A DNA stretch of 32,000 nucleotides from Candidatus Saccharimonadota bacterium. GTDB lineage: Bacteria > Patescibacteriota > Gracilibacteria > BD1-5 > UBA6164. The notes below the pieces were generated by a model, which ran no database searches, was not told the origin of the DNA, and saw only the letters and a list, made by a program, of their open reading frames with translations. The DNA is taken from positions 990,001-1,022,000 of the forward strand of contig OY782392.1 in the NCBI GenBank assembly GCA_963677765.1, given 5' to 3'. The translations under genes and the position numbers were made by a program. Below are positions 2,961-22,058 of the stretch, piece after piece. Position 1 is the stretch's first letter, and each line of letters begins with the position of its first letter.

Positions 2961-3006
2961 AAGATTTTTTATTAATATGGAGTTATTAAAATATAATTAT
3001 AAAAAT

Positions 3007-3636
3007 ATGAAAAAAATATTATCTTTAATTGTTTTTGTTTTTAGTATTTCTTCTGTAGCTGCATTATCTTTATCAGCTGATGTAGAATATGCTAATAAAT
3101 TAGCAGAAAAATGAATAATAAATGATCATAGTGAGAATCCATCAAATTATAATTTAAATGATAGTGTATTAAGACAAGAAATTGCAGCAGTTGCTAGATG
3201 AGTTTATGAATCAAGATTATGAAAAGAAATTTGAAGTTTAAAAAAAGATACTTGTGATAATATATTTTGAGATGTTAGTTCTACTAAACCAAATACTTGG
3301 GCTTGTTATAGTGTTGAAGCATTAGTTGATAATGATTTAATTGCAAAAAATACTAATTTTAGACCAGAGGATAAAATAACTAAAGCAGAATCTTTAGGTA
3401 TGCTTATAAAAGCTATAGGTTTTGAATATTCATATAATTCTGATTTAAATACTTCTTGGCAAGAACAAATAGTTGATTTTTCAGTTAAAAATTGAGTAAT
3501 AGCAAGTTTTAACGATTATGATGCTGAAGCTACAAGATGATGGATTTTTGAGGTTGCTAATCATGTTATAAGAGTTCATGAGACAAGACAAATAGAAAAG
3601 AAAAAACAAGAAACAATTAGTTGAGAGGTTTTATAA
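3007..3636 (+). CDS. Secreted protein with SLH (S-layer homology)-like repeats, 209 aa
   Basis: Signal-peptide-like N-terminus MKKILSLIVFVFSISSVAALSLSA. The SLH-like segment reads FGDVSSTKPNTWACYSVEALVDNDLIAKNTNFRPEDKITKAESLGMLIKAIG. An earlier half-repeat reads ANKLAEKGIINDHS... Confidence 0.7.
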
Positions 3637-3656
3637 TAACTACTTATTTATAATAA

Positions 3657-3926
3657 ATGGAAAATAAAGAATTACTTGAAAATTATAGAGAGCAAATTAA
3701 TACTCTTGATAAAGAACTTATATATTTGTTTTTTAGAAGATTTGAAATTGTTAAAGAAATTTGAAAAATAAAAAAAGAAGAATGAGTTAAACCTTTGGAT
3801 ACTAATAGATGGAATAAATTATTAGAAGATAATTTAGAGGTATCAAGAGAATTTGGGCTTGAAGATGAATTTATTATTGATATATGGAATAGAATTCATG
3901 AACAAAGTTTAAAATTAGAAAAATAA
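3657..3926 (+). CDS. AroQ-class chorismate mutase-like protein, 89 aa
   Basis: The translation LLENYREQINTLDKELIYLFFRRFEIVKEIGKIKKEEGVKPLDTNRWNKLLEDN... follows the AroQ helix pattern (R..Id.iD..l..Ll..R......ig..K). It starts 20 nt after the SLH gene, so the two are probably co-transcribed. Confidence 0.65.
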
Positions 3927-3957
3927 AAAAGAAATACTTTTATGTATTTCTTTTTTA
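3926..3957. terminator. Bidirectional rho-independent terminator between convergent genes
   Basis: The arms gaaatac and gtatttc form a hairpin flanked by an A-run and a T-run. It sits directly between the stops at 3924-3926 (+) and 3958-3960 (-). Confidence 0.65.
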
Positions 3958-5730
3958 TTATGATTTTAGTTCTATACTATATGCTTTTCAGTTAAATCAT
4001 GTTAATCTTGCATATTCAGCTGCTGATACATTCTCACTAGCTCTTGCACTTCATCAAGGGATATTTGACTTATAATAACTATAATAATTATTATCATTTC
4101 ATTTTATTTCTACATGTCAAAATTTTCTTCTTGCATTAGTAGCCCCAGATGATGAAGCATCTTCATTATATACTAATATTTCTCATGCTAGAGCATCTTT
4201 TGGATAATCTATATCTCTAGTTTTTATTTCTATATTTTCATGTATTATATTATCTATATCAATTCATGCATCTCTTAATTCATTTGAATTTTTTATTTCT
4301 CCAGTACTATTTCACCATTGTAATATAAATGGATTATTTGAGTTTATTTCTCAAGTTAATATAGAATCAAAATTAGCTCAATGTCTTTGGTAAGATATAT
4401 TTAATGTATTTCTTATAGATTTACTTCTCATGAAGGTATCTATAAGTCTATAAACTGCTAATCAACAACTATTTGGTCATGTTCTTCATAAATGTTTTTC
4501 TCATTCTCTTGATAACCATTCTCAAAACTCTTTTGATAAATTTCATTCAATATCTTCTCTAATTGTTTCAGTTTGTAGATTTTCAGGTCTAGGAGTAGGT
4601 CTTATATTTCATAAATTACTTTCTTCTGATGAATTTGTGTCTCATATATTTTCAGGTCTAGCTTTAGGTCTAGTTCATCATAGATTATTATCTTGACTTT
4701 CTCAATCTATAACTGAAGTTTCTTTTGAGTCATAATCTCATTCATTAGTTATGAATTCTTCAATTTTAAGAACTTGTCAATTAAATATACTTAATCTTCT
4801 TCATGATTCTGTTAAAAAATCTCAATCTCAATTATTTATATATGTTTCACCGTTTATTATTAACTTTTGATAATCTCAAAATAAATCAACTGCTCTCATT
4901 TCTCTATTAAGATTTGATTCAGGTAGTTTTATTTCAACTCAATTAGATGTTGTTTCAGTAAAAATTTTTCTTGCTTCTCTTTGGTAGTTATATTCAAATA
5001 TAATATTTCTTAGTTTATTAATATAGTTTATTCTATCATCCCTTCTTCATAGTAAATTTAATTGATTTAAAATTTTTGATAAATCTCTTTGTATAAATGA
5101 TTCATGTAATAATCATTCTACAGATGATGTTTCTGAAAAAACTAATGTATTATTGTTATTTCATTTATCCATTATAGTTATATTTCATTTTTCATCTATA
5201 AAAATAAAGCTATCAGGACTTATATCATTTGATAATATTATAGCAAGTAGTTCACTATCTACTCAATTTAATTTTGAAAAATTATCTATAAATCATTTTA
5301 CATCTTCTCATACTCTTCTACCACTTGAAATTTGTTTTGGTGTAAAGATATCACTAATTGGAGCATTTTTATATTTTATATATGTGTTTACTCAAAAAAG
5401 ACCATCAACATATGATCATGTAATATATTGAATATTTTTTACTTCTTGTCTTGTTAAAGACTTTATTTCATTTTCTATATTTTCAAAATCACTAGAATCT
5501 TGTATTATATTTTTTAGTTCTATTTCGTTTTTTATTTCTTGAATTTGAATAGATGTTTCTTCTTGAATACTTTCTTTTTCTAGATTATATTGAGATAAAT
5601 ATTCATTTATATCATCTTTTTCATTTTGATTTAAATTGTTATCTTCTAATGATTTTATAGCTAATTCTAAAAAATTATTATCTTGTGATAAATCATTTAT
5701 TTGTTCATTTCTTGATGGAATTTCGCTCAT
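3958..5730 (-). CDS. Large hypothetical protein (590 aa): acidic low-complexity N-terminus, Pro/Arg repeat linker, and a C-terminal putative Cys/His papain-fold (CHAP/NlpC-P60-like) domain
   Basis: The frame is continuous from ATG (5728-5730) to TAA (complement of 3958-3960) when TCA on the + strand is read as Gly. The N-terminus is MSEIPSRNEQINDLSQDNNFLELAIKSLEDNNLNQNEKDD... Repeats are RPKARPENIGD and RPTPRPENLQT. The C-terminus has ...GPNSCGLAVYRLI..., ...GEILVYNEDASSSG... and ...FGHVEIKGNDNNYY. No signal peptide or TM helix is evident. Confidence 0.8.
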
Positions 5731-5845
5731 AAACTTATTTGTTATACTTTATATAATAATTATATTTTATTATATTTTATAGATTATTACAAAATATTGT
5801 TTCTTTTTCTTGAAAAAATACGAAAAATAATTATAACTTATTTAA

Positions 5846-6002
5846 GTAAGAAAATATTTCTATATAAAAGTTGGGTTGGAATCCGTACTTGAAATGTTTT
5901 TTTGCAAAAGAAAAAACTTCCGGGTGGAACCGTCCTTTTTATCAAAAAGGACCCTGGAGACAATATTTTCAAAAGAAAAATGTCTCAATTAGGGTCTTTT
6001 TC
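5846..6002 (+). promoter_or_regulatory. T-box riboswitch leader (glycine) controlling glyQS by transcription attenuation
   Basis: The T-box core is ccGGGUGGAACCGUCC at 5920-5935. Antiterminator helix A1 pairs 5920-5924 with 5953-5957. The 7-nt bulge is UGGAACC (5925-5931). Helix A2 pairs 5932-5940 with 5944-5952. The competing terminator pairs 5950-5955 with 5991-5996 and 5957-5962 with 5981-5986, followed by UUUUUCUUUUU. An upstream long hairpin at 5846-5905 has the apical loop UUGGAAU. A possible promoter is TTGAAA (5810-5815), a 16-nt spacer, then TATAAC (5832-5837). Confidence 0.85.
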
Positions 6003-6041
6003 TTTTTGAATAAAAAATTTTTATTTTTTAATTATTGTCTT

Positions 6042-7457
6042 ATGAGTAATTTTACAATGAAGGATTTAGTTAATCTTTCTCAAACTAGAGGGTTTGTATA
6101 TCCATGATCAGAAATATATGGTTGATTAGCTAATTCTTGGGATTATGGACCTTATGGTTCTTTGATGAAAGAAAATATAAAGAATTTATGGATAAAGGAA
6201 TTTGTTCAAAAAAGAACAGATATGACTTTAATAGATTCATCAATATTATATAATCCACAAGTTTGGATAGCTTCATGACATGTAGGTGGTTTTAGTGATC
6301 CTCTAATCGATGATAAAAATACAAAACAAAGATTTAGAGCAGATAAATTATTAGAAGATTTGATAGAAAAATTAGATGATGCAGAAAATTATCTAAAAAC
6401 AAAATATTCAGTTAATAATCTTATTCCTGAATCTTGGCCTTTAGAAAAACAAACTGAGGTTATGAGATGAGAAAAAGTTTTAAATCCTGAAACATGAGAA
6501 CCATGAGATTGGACTGATGTAAAAACTTTTAATCTTATGTTTAAAACAAAGCAATGAGTTACAGATGATTCTTCTAATGAAATATATCTTAGACCAGAAA
6601 CTGCTCAATGAATTTTTATTGACTTTCCAAGTGTTCTTAGAACAAGTAGAAGAAAATTACCTTTCTGAGTTGCTCAAGTTGGTAAAGCTTTTAGAAATGA
6701 AATAACTCCAGGTAATTTTATTTTTAGAACTAGAGAATTTGAACAAATGGAAATAGAATATTTTTGTGAACCAGGTACTGATTTAGAAGTTCATGAAGAA
6801 TGGAAAAAAGCTTGTATGAGTTTTTTAAAAAATACTCTTTCTATAAAAGAAGATAATTTAAAACTTAGAGATCATGAAGATGATGAATTATCTCATTATT
6901 CAAATGCTACAACTGATATTGAATATAAATTCCCATTTGGTTGGTGAGAATTATGGTGAATAGCTGATAGAACAGATTTTGACCTGAAAGCACATATGTC
7001 TGAATCAAAAGCTGATATGAGTTATTTTGATCCAGTTAATAATAAAAAATATATTCCTTATGTAATTGAACCAAGTGTTTGATTAAATAGATTATTTTTA
7101 GCTTGTATGAGTGATGCTTATACTATAGATGAAGAAAATAATAGAACATATTTAAAACTTGATCCAAAAGTAGCTCCTATAAAAATTTGAGTTTTACCTG
7201 TTGTTAAAAAAATAGGAAACTTAGCAAAAGAAATTTATGCTCAGTTAAGTGAAGATTTTGTTTGTGAGTATGATGAAGTATGAAGTATAGGAAAAAGATA
7301 TGCAAGAATGGATGAAGTTTGAACACCTTTTTGTGTAACTGTAGATTCTAATAACTATGAAGCTTGAAAAGTTACTGTTAGATTTAGAGATACTATGGAA
7401 CAAGAAGAAGTTTTAATATCTGAATTAAATGATTTTATTAGATCTAAAATGAAATAA
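6042..7457 (+). CDS. glyQS: Glycine--tRNA ligase, homodimeric (alpha2) class II type, 471 aa
   Basis: The translation begins [50 protein letters not shown]. Later motifs are ...[14 protein letters not shown]... and ...[25 protein letters not shown]... Conserved Gly positions are encoded by TGA. Confidence 0.95.
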
Positions 7458-7491: not shown

Positions 7492-8055
7492 TAATTCATT
7501 ATTATTTTCAACTTCTTTATTTTCATTTGAAGTTTTATTTTCATTCATTTTGTATCATACTAAAGGGTACATTATGAAAGGAATTAGAATAAATCAAATA
7601 GTTGTTCATACTCATCTACCAGTTCTTACTGATATAGCATGTATAAGTTTAATCCACATTACAAGAGCATAAATATAAGCTATTATTAAACTTATTCCAA
7701 AAGTAAATATTGCTAAGAAAGCTCATACTACTATAGCTAAAATAGGAAAAACTAAATAGTGTAACCAAGATTTTTTTGAAGCACTAAAATAACTATATAT
7801 TTGAACTACTGGTATAAAAGAAACCCATGGATATTTTTCTCATAATTTTTTATTTATAAGATAAAGACCAATTGCTACAGTTAGATACATTATCAATGAC
7901 AATCCATTTACAGCCATTCATACTGCCGCTAGTGTATCCATCATAACTGGATCTATAGATTGTGCTTGAGTTTCAATTTGAGTATATTCTATATTTGCTC
8001 AACTAGTATTAGATTGTAACTCTTGCATCATTTGATTTATTTGTTCTTCGTTCAT
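7489..8055 (-). CDS. Integral membrane protein, hypothetical (188 aa)
   Basis: The minus-strand frame is open with TGA=Gly. Translation runs MNEEQINQMMQELQSNTSGANIEY...GLSLIMYLTVAIGLYLINKKLGEKYPWVSFIPVVQIYSYF...LVFPILAIVVGAFLAIFTFGISLIIAYIYALVMW... It has several hydrophobic helices. Confidence 0.7.
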
Positions 8056-19379: not shown

Positions 19380-22058
19380 ATGACAAATAATGAATTCCCG
19401 AAAAAATATAATCCAAAAGAGTTTGAAGAAAAATTATATACTAATTGGGAACAAACAGAAAAATTTAAACCTAGAGAATCTACTACGGGAGAACAATTTT
19501 ATATACCTATGCCTCCTCCAAATGTAACATCAAAACTTCATGTTGGTCATTCGTTATGATGTACTATACAAGATATAATGACTAGATATCATAGAATGAA
19601 ATGAGATTCTACTTTATTGTTACCAGGTACTGATCATGCAGGTATTTCTACTCAAGTAAAAGTAGAAGAAAAATTAGCAAAAGAATGAAAAAATAAACAT
19701 AATATTTCAAGAGAAGAGTTTTTAAAAGAATGTTGGGATTGGACGAATGAATATGGTGGAACTATTCAATGACAATTTAGAAAAATGTGAACTAGTTGTG
19801 ATTGGTCAAAAGAAAAATTCACAATGGATTCAGATATGAATGAAAACGTAAATAAAGCATTTGTTGACTTATATAATAAATGACTTATTTATAAATGAGA
19901 ATACATGGTTAATTATGACCCTGTATTAGATACTGTAGTTTCTGATCAAGAAGTTATATACAAAGAAGAAAAAACAAAACTTTATCACATAACTTATTTT
20001 GTATCTTGAAGTGATAATGAAGTTGTTATCGCTACTACTAGACCTGAAACTTTACTTTGAGATGTAGCTGTTGCCGTTCATCCAAAAGATAAAAGATATA
20101 AAAAATTATTAAAAGCTGGTAAAAAATTAATATTACCAATTGTAAATAAAGAAATTCCAATTATAGCTGATGAAATGGTTGATATGGAATTTGGTACTGG
20201 TGCTGTAAAAATTACCCCTGCTCATGATGCTAATGACTTTGAAGTAGCTAAAAGACATGATTTACCATTAAATAAAGTTGTTTTATGAAAAGATGGTAAT
20301 ATGACTAAAATAGCATGAATTTTTGCATGACAAGATTATAAAACTGCTAGAGAGAATATAGTTGAGTTGTTAAAAGCAAAATGAAATCTTATAAAAATAG
20401 AAGATCATGTTTCAAAAGTATGATATGGTGAAAGATCTCATGCGAAAATTGAAACTATTATATCTAAACAATGGTTTGTAAAAATTGAACCTATTGCTAA
20501 AAAAGTAATCAAATGATATAAAAATAAAGATTTTGAAATTGTACCAAAAAGATTTAATAAATCTTTTGAAGATTGGATTTTTAATCTTAGAGATTGGTGT
20601 ATATCTAGACAGCTTATATGGTGACATCAAATCCCTGTTTGGTATTGACCTGATGGAGAAATATTTTGTGCTGAATCAGAAGAGTTAGCTTTAGAATCAG
20701 CTAAGTCTCATTATGGAGAAGATACTAAACTTACAAGAGATTCAGACGCTTTAGATACTTGGTTTAGTTCTGCATTATGGCCATTTTCTACTTTGGGTTA
20801 TGAATTTAATAGTGATAATCAAAATAAACTTATAAAAGACTTTTATCCTTCTTCAGTTCTTGAAACTGCATATGATATAATATTCTTTTGGGTTATTAGA
20901 ATGCTTTTATTTTGATATGAATTCACATGAACTACTCCATTTAAAACAATATATTTCCATTGATTAGTAAGAGATAAAATTGGTAGAAAAATGAGTAAAT
21001 CATTATGAAATTGAACAGATCCAATTGATATGATAGAAAAATATTGAACTGATGCTTTAAGATTAACTTTATCAATAGGTAATACTCCTTGAAATGACTT
21101 AAAATTTGATGAAGAAAATGTAGAAAATAATATGTTCTTTATTAATAAATTATGGAATGCTTCTAGATTTGTTTCTACTAATTTAAGTTCAGTTGATAAT
21201 GATATTGCTTCAATTGAAAAAGATTTAAAAGAAAATTATAATAATCTTATGTTTCATGAAAAATGGATATTATCTAGAGTTAGATATTTATCAGATTTGG
21301 TTACTGAATCTATGGAAAACTATGATTTTTCAGAAGCATGACAAGAACTTCAAACATTTACTAGAAATGAATTTTGTGACTATTACATAGAAGAATTTAA
21401 ACTTACTAAGGATGAATCTAAATATTGAGAAAAAGTTATTACTTATGTTTTAAATATTTTATTAAAACTTTGGCATCCATATATTCCTTTTGTTACTGAA
21501 GAAATATATAACAGAGTTTGATTTTCTTGAGAATTGATAGTTTCAGATTGGTGAAATGTTTCTATTGATAGAGATTTAGATATAGAAAAAGACAATTCAT
21601 TAGTTTTAGATGTTATTAGAGAAATTAGAAGCTTAAGAGCTGATAATAATATAATGCCTAATAAAACTATTTGATTAAAAATTTATGCAAAAAATAAAAA
21701 TGCAGATGTTTTAAATCAAGTTTTACCAATGATAGCTTGAATAGTAAAAGCAGATGAATATGAATTAATTGATAAAAAAATTGATGATGATTGATATGCT
21801 TATGGTGTAATAAAATCTTGAGTTGAAGTTTATGTAGATACATCTAATGCATTAGATGTTAATAAAGAAATTGAAAGACTAGAATCTCAAATTATTGATA
21901 TGAAGGAATATATTGCTATTTTAGATAAAAAATTATTAAATGAATCTTTTGTTAATAAGGCTCCTGAAAAGTTAGTTAGAGCTGAAATGGAGAAAAAATC
22001 ACAAGCACAAGATAAATTACTTAAATTACAAGATAAATTATCTAAATTATCTAAATAA
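19380..22058 (+). CDS. valS: Valine--tRNA ligase, 892 aa
   Basis: The HIGH motif lies in [16 protein letters not shown]. Further motifs are ...[12 protein letters not shown]..., ...[17 protein letters not shown]... and ...[18 protein letters not shown]. They continue with ...[17 protein letters not shown]... and ...[15 protein letters not shown]... The KMSKS motif lies in [10 protein letters not shown]. The C-terminus is a coiled coil. Confidence 0.95.

Follow-up and report, generated by a model that had tools for sequence, protein, structure and literature searches.

A probable glycine T-box leader with an apical specifier loop and no distal Stem I platform upstream of glyQS in a UGA-recoding bacterium of the candidate phyla

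Results

A candidate T-box leader precedes the glycyl-tRNA synthetase gene

This analysis concerns the RNA leader of glyQS, the gene for a dimeric-type glycyl-tRNA synthetase (GlyRS), in a 32,000-nucleotide (nt) stretch of contig OY782392.1 (positions 990,001 to 1,022,000) from a Candidatus Saccharimonadota bacterium of Gracilibacteria lineage. The whole stretch is referred to as the window, and positions are counted from its first letter. The window has a G+C content of 23%, and UGA is taken as a sense codon because the window genes otherwise do not read through. Across 25 open reading frames (ORFs), UGA accounts for 480 of 599 glycine codons (~80%), next to 89 GGU, 19 GGA, 11 GGG, and no GGC codons. 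The protein encoded downstream of the leader matches the glycine--tRNA ligase model NF003211 with 629.7 bits (cut-off 312), and its gene has UGA, read as glycine, at 16 in-frame positions; of the 15-16 of these that align with two non-recoded homologs (L025 and L135, introduced below), 12 match a glycine there.

The gene on the 5' side of the leader is divergent, starting at position 5730 on the minus strand, which places the leader within a 311-nt intergenic region. We consider it highly likely that positions 5844-6007 form a glycine T-box transcription attenuator ahead of glyQS (Table 1). An earlier note on this DNA had proposed a T-box on this gene, and the identity of the downstream protein agrees with that assignment. 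The motif TGGNACC occurs a single time in the 32 kb, and no T-box-like leader is seen at the valyl-tRNA synthetase gene (valS, ~19380-22058) or at any other gene of the window.

Table 1. Positions of the predicted leader elements and of the regulated gene in the window
Feature	Positions	Strand	Details
Predicted sigma-70-type promoter	5810-5837	+	-35 TTGAAA 5810-5815, 16-nt spacer, -10 TATAAC 5832-5837
Stem I, single hairpin	5846-5905	+	Lower helix 5846-5860/5891-5905; 5' bulge 5861-5867; upper helix 5868-5874/5883-5890; loop 5875-5882
5' bulge UAUAUAA	5861-5867	+	At the K-turn position of relatives and canonical T-boxes; GA 5891-5892 remains on the 3' strand
Specifier loop GUUGGAAU	5875-5882	+	GGA codon 5878-5880, between invariant U5877 and invariant A5881
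Purine-rich linker AAAAGAAAAAACU	5906-5918	+	Variant of the family motif AAAAGU(A/G); alignments A1 and A2
Antiterminator (T-box sequence)	5919-5958	+	Helix A1 5919-5924/5953-5958; bulge 5925-5931; helix A2 5932-5940/5944-5952
Intrinsic terminator	5950-6007	+	Hairpin 5950-5996; U-run UUUUUCUUUUU 5997-6007
glyQS-type (dimeric) glycyl-tRNA synthetase gene, regulated gene	6042-7457	+	ATG at 6042; protein match NF003211

Related leaders are widespread among Gracilibacteria-type genomes

Relatives were collected by a GlyRS protein scan with one genome per species, which yielded 72 loci, mostly from Gracilibacteria-type assemblies. The exact 10-mer GGTGGAACCG, present once in the window, is found at the equivalent place in 43 of these 72 glyS loci, mostly 90-190 nt 5' of glyQS and, in some, 5' of a short operon that ends in glyQS. 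The window together with these 43 related genomes gives the set of 44 leaders on which the comparisons below are based. A covariance model built from the window-type clade (R1) recovered every one of the 44 leaders, with no other credible match in 503 kb. As R1 aligned Stem I of the subtype bearing Stem III badly, the specifier loop was instead examined in ungapped alignments grouped by loop size, comprising 21 sequences with 8-nt loops and 13 with 9-nt loops (alignments A5 and A6).

One of these relatives, L025 (CP060226.1, 38% G+C), has its T-box at 2529 and glyQS at 3001-4380; its loop is UAUGGUAAC, its specifier is GGU, and its glyQS has no in-frame UGA. L025 is also among several loci (L018-L023, L025, L027, L029, and L045) in which the T-box lies 0.5-1.8 kb 5' of glyQS, the intervening genes encoding a conserved membrane protein of ~95 amino acids (aa; containing KRNKKVEAEKAWETS) and often a 131-aa RidA/YjgF-like protein. 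In these relatives the leader may control a small operon.

The antiterminator and terminator are conserved and mutually exclusive

The 3' part of the leader is the switch of a transcriptional T-box. Its T-box sequence, GGGUGGAACCGUC, lies at 5922-5934. In helix A1, CCGGG (5920-5924) pairs with CCUGG (5953-5957), as the earlier note had described, although the helix extends one pair further than was thought, because covariation in the relatives adds U5919-A5958. The bulge UGGAACC displays UGGA (5925-5928), which is complementary to a tRNA 3' end of UCCA, and helix A2 is closed by the loop AUC. The terminator hairpin takes up the 3' strands of both A2 and A1 and thereby excludes the antiterminator; bulge, helix A2, and exclusive terminator with its U-run are all present where they had been predicted. 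Folding energy is -16.1 kcal/mol for the antiterminator and -30.5 kcal/mol when 5906-6010 adopts the terminator state; a weaker antiterminator than terminator is what T-box logic requires.

Pairing in the antiterminator helices amounts to 91.3% over the 44 sequences, and 8 of 12 pairs show compensatory changes, including swaps from U-A to C-G at three A1 positions in 12-15 sequences. In 500 shuffles the covariation never rises to the observed level, and controls in which the pairing was slid along the alignment are at most 62% paired.

Short Stem I's have so far mainly been described in T-boxes that act on translation, and control of translation initiation, as in the actinobacterial ileS T-boxes, would be the corresponding alternative for this leader. 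A G+C-rich hairpin followed by a U-run is, however, found in all 43 leaders that could be tested, and the terminator in the window, with its U-run, ends ~35 nt before the ATG, leaving the start region uncovered. We regard translational control as scarcely credible here, and transcription attenuation as the reading to pursue.

Stem I is a single hairpin that ends in the specifier loop

The minimum free energy fold of positions 5845-6012 recovers the single hairpin that had been described from inspection of the sequence, with a 15-base-pair (bp) basal helix containing three G-U pairs, the 7-nt bulge UAUAUAA, and an upper helix in which U5886 is bulged. This fold is markedly more stable than expected (z = -4.84; 0 of 200 shuffles as stable). 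A Stem I is found in 44 of 44 leaders, with a median of 22 bp, and the alignment of the window-type clade shows 88% pairing in the upper helix, where five of seven pairs have compensatory changes. In the comparison of orthologous leaders, which had been proposed as a check, the upper part of the hairpin covaries, the UGGNA of the loop is invariant, and antiterminator and terminator are conserved.

The apical loop follows the motif N-W-U-G-G-N-A-N(-N), is 8-10 nt long, and is closed by a small helix in all 44 leaders. Within it, U-G-G-N-A is invariant, and the sole variable position is the third codon base, giving GGA in 38 leaders, GGU in four, GGG in one, and GGC in one; UGA is the specifier in none of the 44. 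The closing helices comprise 37 different sequences, and yet the three closing pairs are 100% paired in both loop-size groups, with 2-5 pair types at each. Their covariation scores of 0.58 and 0.85 compare with 0.22 and 0.25 for shuffled alignments, and none of 500 shuffles attains them. At the level of sequence, this pattern is the signature of a specifier codon displayed in a terminal loop, in keeping with the earlier proposal that GGA followed by A is the specifier. That proposal had placed GGA in a 7-nt loop at 5876-5882; the position of the codon stands, but the register seen in the relatives favors an 8-nt loop, G5875-U5882, closed by G5874-C5883, G5873-C5884, and U5872-G5885. A UGA-A at 5890-5893 was considered as an alternative specifier for tRNA-Gly(UCA) and rejected, as it is not conserved among the relatives.

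No distal Stem I platform, consisting of an AG bulge and a distal loop, is present, and the specifier loop terminates Stem I in 44 of 44 leaders. A kink-turn (K-turn) is likewise absent from the window, where the 5' strand of the bulge UAUAUAA contains no GA. The K-turn consensus is matched by two of the 44 leaders in a strict search (L014 and L022) and by five in a relaxed one (adding L032, L038, and L039), with 0.04 and 0.21 sequences, respectively, expected from shuffles. A passage in PMC11404447 describes some streptococcal glycyl T-boxes that also have no recognizable K-turn.

Only 13 nt (5906-5918) separate Stem I from helix A1 in the window, too few to accommodate a Stem II, a IIA/B pseudoknot, or a Stem III hairpin. 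This linker is the counterpart of the purines that are conserved on the 5' side of Stem III and could itself form at most 3 bp, which would overlap helix A1. Two forms of the leader can be distinguished across the family: one with a Stem III composed of AAAAGUGC, a hairpin, and AACUUG, and one, represented by the window, in which the hairpin is deleted and an AAAAGU(A/G)AAAA linker is kept. The absence of an internal specifier loop, of a platform, and of a clear Stem III had been noted before; Stem II can now be added to the list. The specifier loop sits 41-75 nt 5' of the T-box sequence in the 44 leaders, and in those without Stem III the distance from UGG to GGUGG is 41-50 nt.

A conserved predicted promoter adjoins the base of Stem I

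The predicted promoter in the window matches the consensus at 10 of 12 positions, and its -10 hexamer ends 39 nt ahead of UGG. Promoters with at least 9 of 12 matches occur in 38 of the 44 leaders, with a median distance of 38 nt between the end of the -10 element and the UGG of the specifier loop. Since the conserved -10 element ends right at the base of Stem I, the transcript probably begins near 5844, with a predicted start at ~5844-5846. A canonical, longer Stem I farther upstream was considered and rejected, given the position of the promoter and the start of the divergent gene at 5730; its absence is in line with the earlier note.

The standard T-box model detects the family only below threshold

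An Rfam scan of the window returns nothing at gathering score and, over positions 5650-6100, no T-box even at E <= 10. The comparison with the T-box model RF00230 that had been named as a check therefore fails for the window itself, while relatives are found below threshold: at relaxed thresholds L014 scores 42.5 bits (E = 4e-6; 1.6e-8 when searched alone), L037 29.2, and L025 24.4, relative to a gathering score of 93. That score is reached by none of 20 relatives and none of 20 of the metagenome leaders described below.

The alignment of L014 to RF00230 indicates how the family relates to other T-boxes. The basal helix, K-turn, and 4-5 bp helix of the model match AAUAUUUC-UGA-GA-G-AAAGU ... 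ACUUU-G-GA-GAAAUAUU; 75 model positions, covering the specifier internal loop and the distal part of Stem I, are replaced by a 9-nt loop; the Stem II and IIA/B positions are deleted; and AAGUG, Stem III, the spacer, and GGGUGGAACCGUCC match Stem III and the antiterminator of the model, with AAGUG, Stem III, and AAUUU falling in its Stem III region. On account of this alignment, the family can be read as a T-box with Stem I cut at the specifier loop. It shares the T-box switch and a specifier with the known class, yet it is atypical both by the model threshold and in several classical features of Stem I.

Metagenome leaders extend the apical specifier to threonine

A pattern scan of metagenome sequences with GGGTGGAACCGTC...GACCC gives 120 matches, mostly chance occurrences in high-G+C coding DNA, and about 26 of the 120 are leaders. 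Further compact glycyl leaders lie 5' of GlyRS genes and have loops of 7-8 nt (UUGGCAC, CUGGCAA, AUUGGCAC, and GUGGCGU); two of these glycyl leaders, L081 and L135, precede a gene without in-frame UGA.

Leaders of thrS, the gene for threonyl-tRNA synthetase (ThrRS), were also found (L073, L102, L116, L128, L164, and L170; also L161, L177, and L151). These have a 7-nt apical loop, C-U-A-C-C-A-A, which displays the threonine codon ACC with a U on its 5' side and an A on its 3' side; the helix that closes this loop covaries. Ahead of the AAGUGAAA motif, the specifier hairpin is followed by two more hairpins, which may be the equivalent of Stem II. After these hairpins come AAGUGAAAYUUC-GGGUGGAACCGUC and a terminator, and none of these leaders attains the Rfam gathering score. 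In L116, for example, whose leader is on the minus strand, the T-box sequence is at reverse-complement position 4549 and the specifier hairpin ~100 nt 5' of it. The UGGA of the thrS leaders would imply a tRNA-Thr with U73. The thrS leaders thus share with the window leader the T-box sequence, the terminator, the U/A-framed apical specifier, and the covarying closing helix, and they differ in the ThrRS target, the ACC codon, the 7-nt loop, the two extra hairpins, and a downstream gene without in-frame UGA.

These leaders also bear on the question of whether the hairpin reads a tRNA at all. With most canonical Stem I features lost and the window leader unrecognized by Rfam, the element could be a T-box remnant in which only the antiterminator senses a tRNA 3' end, the hairpin serving RNA stability, polymerase pausing, or mimicry of a tRNA for GlyRS binding. 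Such a remnant would hardly be expected to vary in its loop exactly as a glycine codon does, with an invariant purine after it, or to keep the spacing between loop and T-box sequence at 41-50 nt in leaders without Stem III. In addition, the codon in this frame is ACC in the thrS leaders, in agreement with the gene that they precede. Mimicry of tRNA-Gly was rejected, since a codon, and not an anticodon, is displayed in the loop. We judge the remnant very improbable and retain the functional specifier as the preferred reading.

The specifier probably corresponds to the GGA reader and not to the dominant UGA reader

The window contains no tRNA genes, the 48 related loci contain one tRNA-Gln only, and the 11 metagenome loci contain no tRNA-Gly. 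We infer that a tRNA-Gly with U34 and an NCC-type anticodon must exist, because GGA codons are present and cannot be read by the anticodon UCA. Bacterial and Gracilibacteria tRNA-Gly carry U73, and published tRNA(UCA) genes of Gracilibacteria have been assigned glycine identity from G1:C72, C2:G71, G3:C70, and U73 (PMC8629427).

A pattern scan of viral contigs in IMG/VR identified two tRNAs with the anticodon UCA, at 480-552 in L193 and at 7794-7867 (minus strand) in L199, both with G1-C2-G3, C70-G71-C72, and U73. The two contigs have 28-29% G+C and are classed as viral. Their tRNAs are glycine-type UGA readers; phages infecting UGA-recoded hosts could be the source, as could host DNA that was misbinned.

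The UGGA of the antiterminator bulge fits U73, the discriminator of bacterial tRNA-Gly generally and of the L193 and L199 tRNA(UCA) in particular. Both glycine isoacceptors should consequently fit the bulge, so that discrimination between them would rest on the specifier, which is UGA neither in the window nor in any of the 42 relatives with in-frame UGA in glyQS. Because L025 has the same architecture and no in-frame UGA, the design either predates recoding or extends beyond it. The earlier suggestion that the GlyRS sensor is tuned to the GGA reader, despite glycine codons dominated by UGA, is consistent with all of these data.

A different reading of the same loop would place the codon one base earlier, as UGG paired with the anticodon UCA through a U-G wobble, such that the leader would sense the major isoacceptor, or both isoacceptors in overlapping registers. 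U-G-G is indeed invariant in all 44 leaders, UUGGA could pair, through one wobble and otherwise by complementarity, with U33-U34-C35-A36-A37 of the L193 and L199 tRNA(UCA), which also have U73, and UGA makes up ~80% of the glycine codons in the window. The same U-codon-A frame is, however, found in L025, L081, and L135, where no UCA tRNA is expected, and the thrS leaders, with U-ACC-A, indicate that the U belongs to the architecture and not to the codon. In this register a pyrimidine would follow the codon in five of the 44 leaders, although T-boxes need a purine there, and a perfect UGA specifier, a single mutation away, is never seen. The UGG register is accordingly a very unlikely one, if marginally less so than the remnant, and GGA in the loop remains the specifier that we favor.

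Discussion

Proposed mechanism

Based on the features above, the leader would act as follows. Transcription would start near 5844, and its first product would be Stem I, a plain hairpin of ~22 bp. The 8-nt apical loop would stack GGA (5878-5880) between the invariant U and A, much like an anticodon in its loop, and a loop-loop kiss could then form between the specifier loop and the anticodon of a GGN-reading tRNA-Gly (UCC here). If this tRNA were uncharged, its UCCA 3' end would pair with UGGA in the bulge and stabilize the antiterminator, allowing readthrough into glyQS; if it were charged or absent, the stronger terminator and its U-run would stop transcription.

In this scheme, the parts, their conservation and covariation, the codon-like variation of the loop, the exclusive helices, and the kinship with T-boxes are seen in the sequences, while the binding of a tRNA and the identity of that tRNA are what we infer. 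Three properties of Stem I may contribute to such binding. The invariant 5' U would occupy a position like that of U33 and pre-stack the codon. The length of the basal helix, together with the conserved spacing between loop and T-box sequence, suggests that this helix acts as a spacer leading from the anticodon towards the acceptor end. Complexes of the anticodon-anticodon type are far more stable than free trinucleotide duplexes, as known from classic work on tRNA, and strong G-C pairs between codon and anticodon, formed by a pre-stacked loop, could, together with the invariant 5' U and 3' A, offset the missing contacts. Glycyl T-boxes are known to do without Stem II owing to the strength of the GGC-GCC duplex, and a purine following the specifier codon is essential (PMC7583486).

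Several points weigh against this interpretation. The partner tRNA, with its UCC anticodon and U73, is deduced from codon usage and general knowledge, and the start site is a prediction from promoter sequence. The lower helix of Stem I is A/U-rich, its covariation is weak, and it is 71% paired in the window-type clade. The window leader also escapes the Rfam model, as described above. Transcriptional T-boxes generally require the elbow-binding platform, and truncated Stem I's without Stem II scarcely bind tRNA (PMC7583486). As the leader has neither a platform nor a Stem II, a further helper or contact might be needed.

A trans-acting protein bound at the A-rich bulge (the former K-turn site) or at the purine linker, or an additional tertiary contact, could in principle supply the lost affinity. 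Besides the published weakness of truncated Stem I's and their need for a platform (PMC7583486), this idea draws on two features that are conserved in kind, an A-rich bulge on the 5' strand and the AAAAGU(A/G) linker. The sequence of the bulge itself is not conserved, though, no candidate factor was found, and the replacement of Stem II by a strong G-C codon-anticodon duplex is known from the glycyl T-boxes. We therefore think a helper unlikely, while taking it seriously, and prefer a leader that recognizes its tRNA through the loop-loop kiss and the bulge.

Comparison with known leader classes

One close counterpart is the glyQS/glyQ T-box of Bacillus type (Bacillus subtilis, Geobacillus kaustophilus, and Oceanobacillus iheyensis; RF00230, TBDB class I). 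Both target a glycyl-tRNA synthetase through a terminator/antiterminator switch, both contain a 7-nt bulge, UGGA-ACC, that would fit U73 of tRNA-Gly, and a glycine codon with the essential A after it, and neither has a Stem II or a IIA/B pseudoknot. In the Bacillus type, Stem I is roughly 90 nt long and holds the specifier in an internal loop that has an S-turn, and the platform for the tRNA elbow, built from an AG bulge and a distal loop, is reported to be essential; a K-turn and Stem III are also present. In contrast, the window leader has no K-turn consensus, platform, or Stem III, and its specifier is GGA in an 8-nt apical loop, instead of GGC.

In the ileS T-boxes, the specifier lies in the apical loop of a Stem I that bears a K-turn (PMC10651847). 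These actinobacterial leaders (Mycobacterium tuberculosis, M. smegmatis, and Nocardia farcinica; TBDB class II) share with the window leader the short Stem I, the K-turn position at its base, the apical specifier, and the absence of a platform. Their codon-anticodon pairs are buttressed by a Stem II with an S-turn and by the IIA/B pseudoknot, which are reported to be essential when Stem I is short, whereas the window leader has 13 nt in place of the Stem II domain. The ileS type moreover sequesters the ribosome-binding site, while the window leader has an intrinsic terminator and no sequestrator, and the two serve different amino acids in different phyla. The resemblance to the ultrashort Stem I of actinobacterial ileS leaders that the earlier note had remarked on thus holds for Stem I itself and does not extend to the rest of the leader.

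A third system, the translational operator of Escherichia coli thrS, also places an anticodon-loop-like hairpin in a synthetase leader. It was rejected as a parallel, as the operator displays an anticodon and binds ThrRS, unlike the window leader, which displays a codon, has a T-box antiterminator, and would be expected to bind a tRNA.

The window leader therefore joins the apical-loop Stem I of the ileS class with the Stem II-less terminator design of Bacillus glyQS, two reductions that, to our knowledge, have not previously been described together. In the literature searched, we found no T-box reports for Gracilibacteria or the Candidate Phyla Radiation, although such absence is no proof of novelty. 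We tentatively propose, with a little less than even confidence, that these leaders constitute a third architectural class of T-box, defined by an apical specifier and the lack of a platform and Stem II, and often of a K-turn and Stem III; this class would be widespread in Gracilibacteria and other lineages of the candidate phyla, with the threonine form as a relative.

Implications for tRNA sensing and genetic-code change

In the current view, transcriptional T-boxes need the platform, and where it is missing, as in actinobacterial ileS, Stem II and the pseudoknot become essential. The leaders described here, covarying in at least 44 species, have neither and still carry a terminator. About half as large as is usual, they would represent the smallest T-box in nature. 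If the proposal is correct, an anticodon-loop-like kiss and the NCCA contact, within ~115 nt of RNA, suffice to sense tRNA charging co-transcriptionally. The leader would then offer a simple system for asking what is sufficient for tRNA recognition, how a hairpin loop can replace the S-turn specifier loop, and whether a basal helix can serve as a spacer.

At gathering score the Rfam model would overlook such a class, and TBDB, having been built with that model, would probably overlook it too. It would extend T-boxes to candidate-phyla bacteria, in which tRNA-sensing regulation is probably under-annotated because the standard covariance model fails there.

A further consequence concerns the genetic code. 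One base change would retarget the sensor to the dominant UGA reader, and yet GGN has been kept in 42 UGA-recoded lineages. If our reading holds, GlyRS expression remains coupled to the isoacceptor that reads GGN, the minor one, and the reason may be that UGA-UCA pairing would be too weak for a bare sensor. The family would in this respect represent a natural experiment on a codon-reading RNA sensor after a change in the genetic code.

Additional observations in the window and metagenome loci

At 228-293 the window contains an adjacent pair of terminator-like hairpins, AAAAAAACACCU..AGGUGUUUUUUU and AAAAAGCCACUUAUUAUAAGUGGCUUUUU, located 5' of the gene at 662-1957. A weak match of the R1 model to this region was rejected as a T-box and attributed to these two hairpins.

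Three metagenome loci (L085, L091, and L139) have T-box-like leaders with a loop region containing AUAUGGUACCAC, in which either GGU or ACC could be the codon. A GNAT-like ORF of ~184-203 aa (MRTIKLKGQRLALIPE..), and no synthetase gene, follows the leader in L085 and L091, and the L139 contig ends soon after the leader. Lastly, a compact leader at 2100-2230 of L094 carries the apical loop GAUACUAA, which would show the threonine codon ACU in the frame of the family; its contig ends before the regulated gene.

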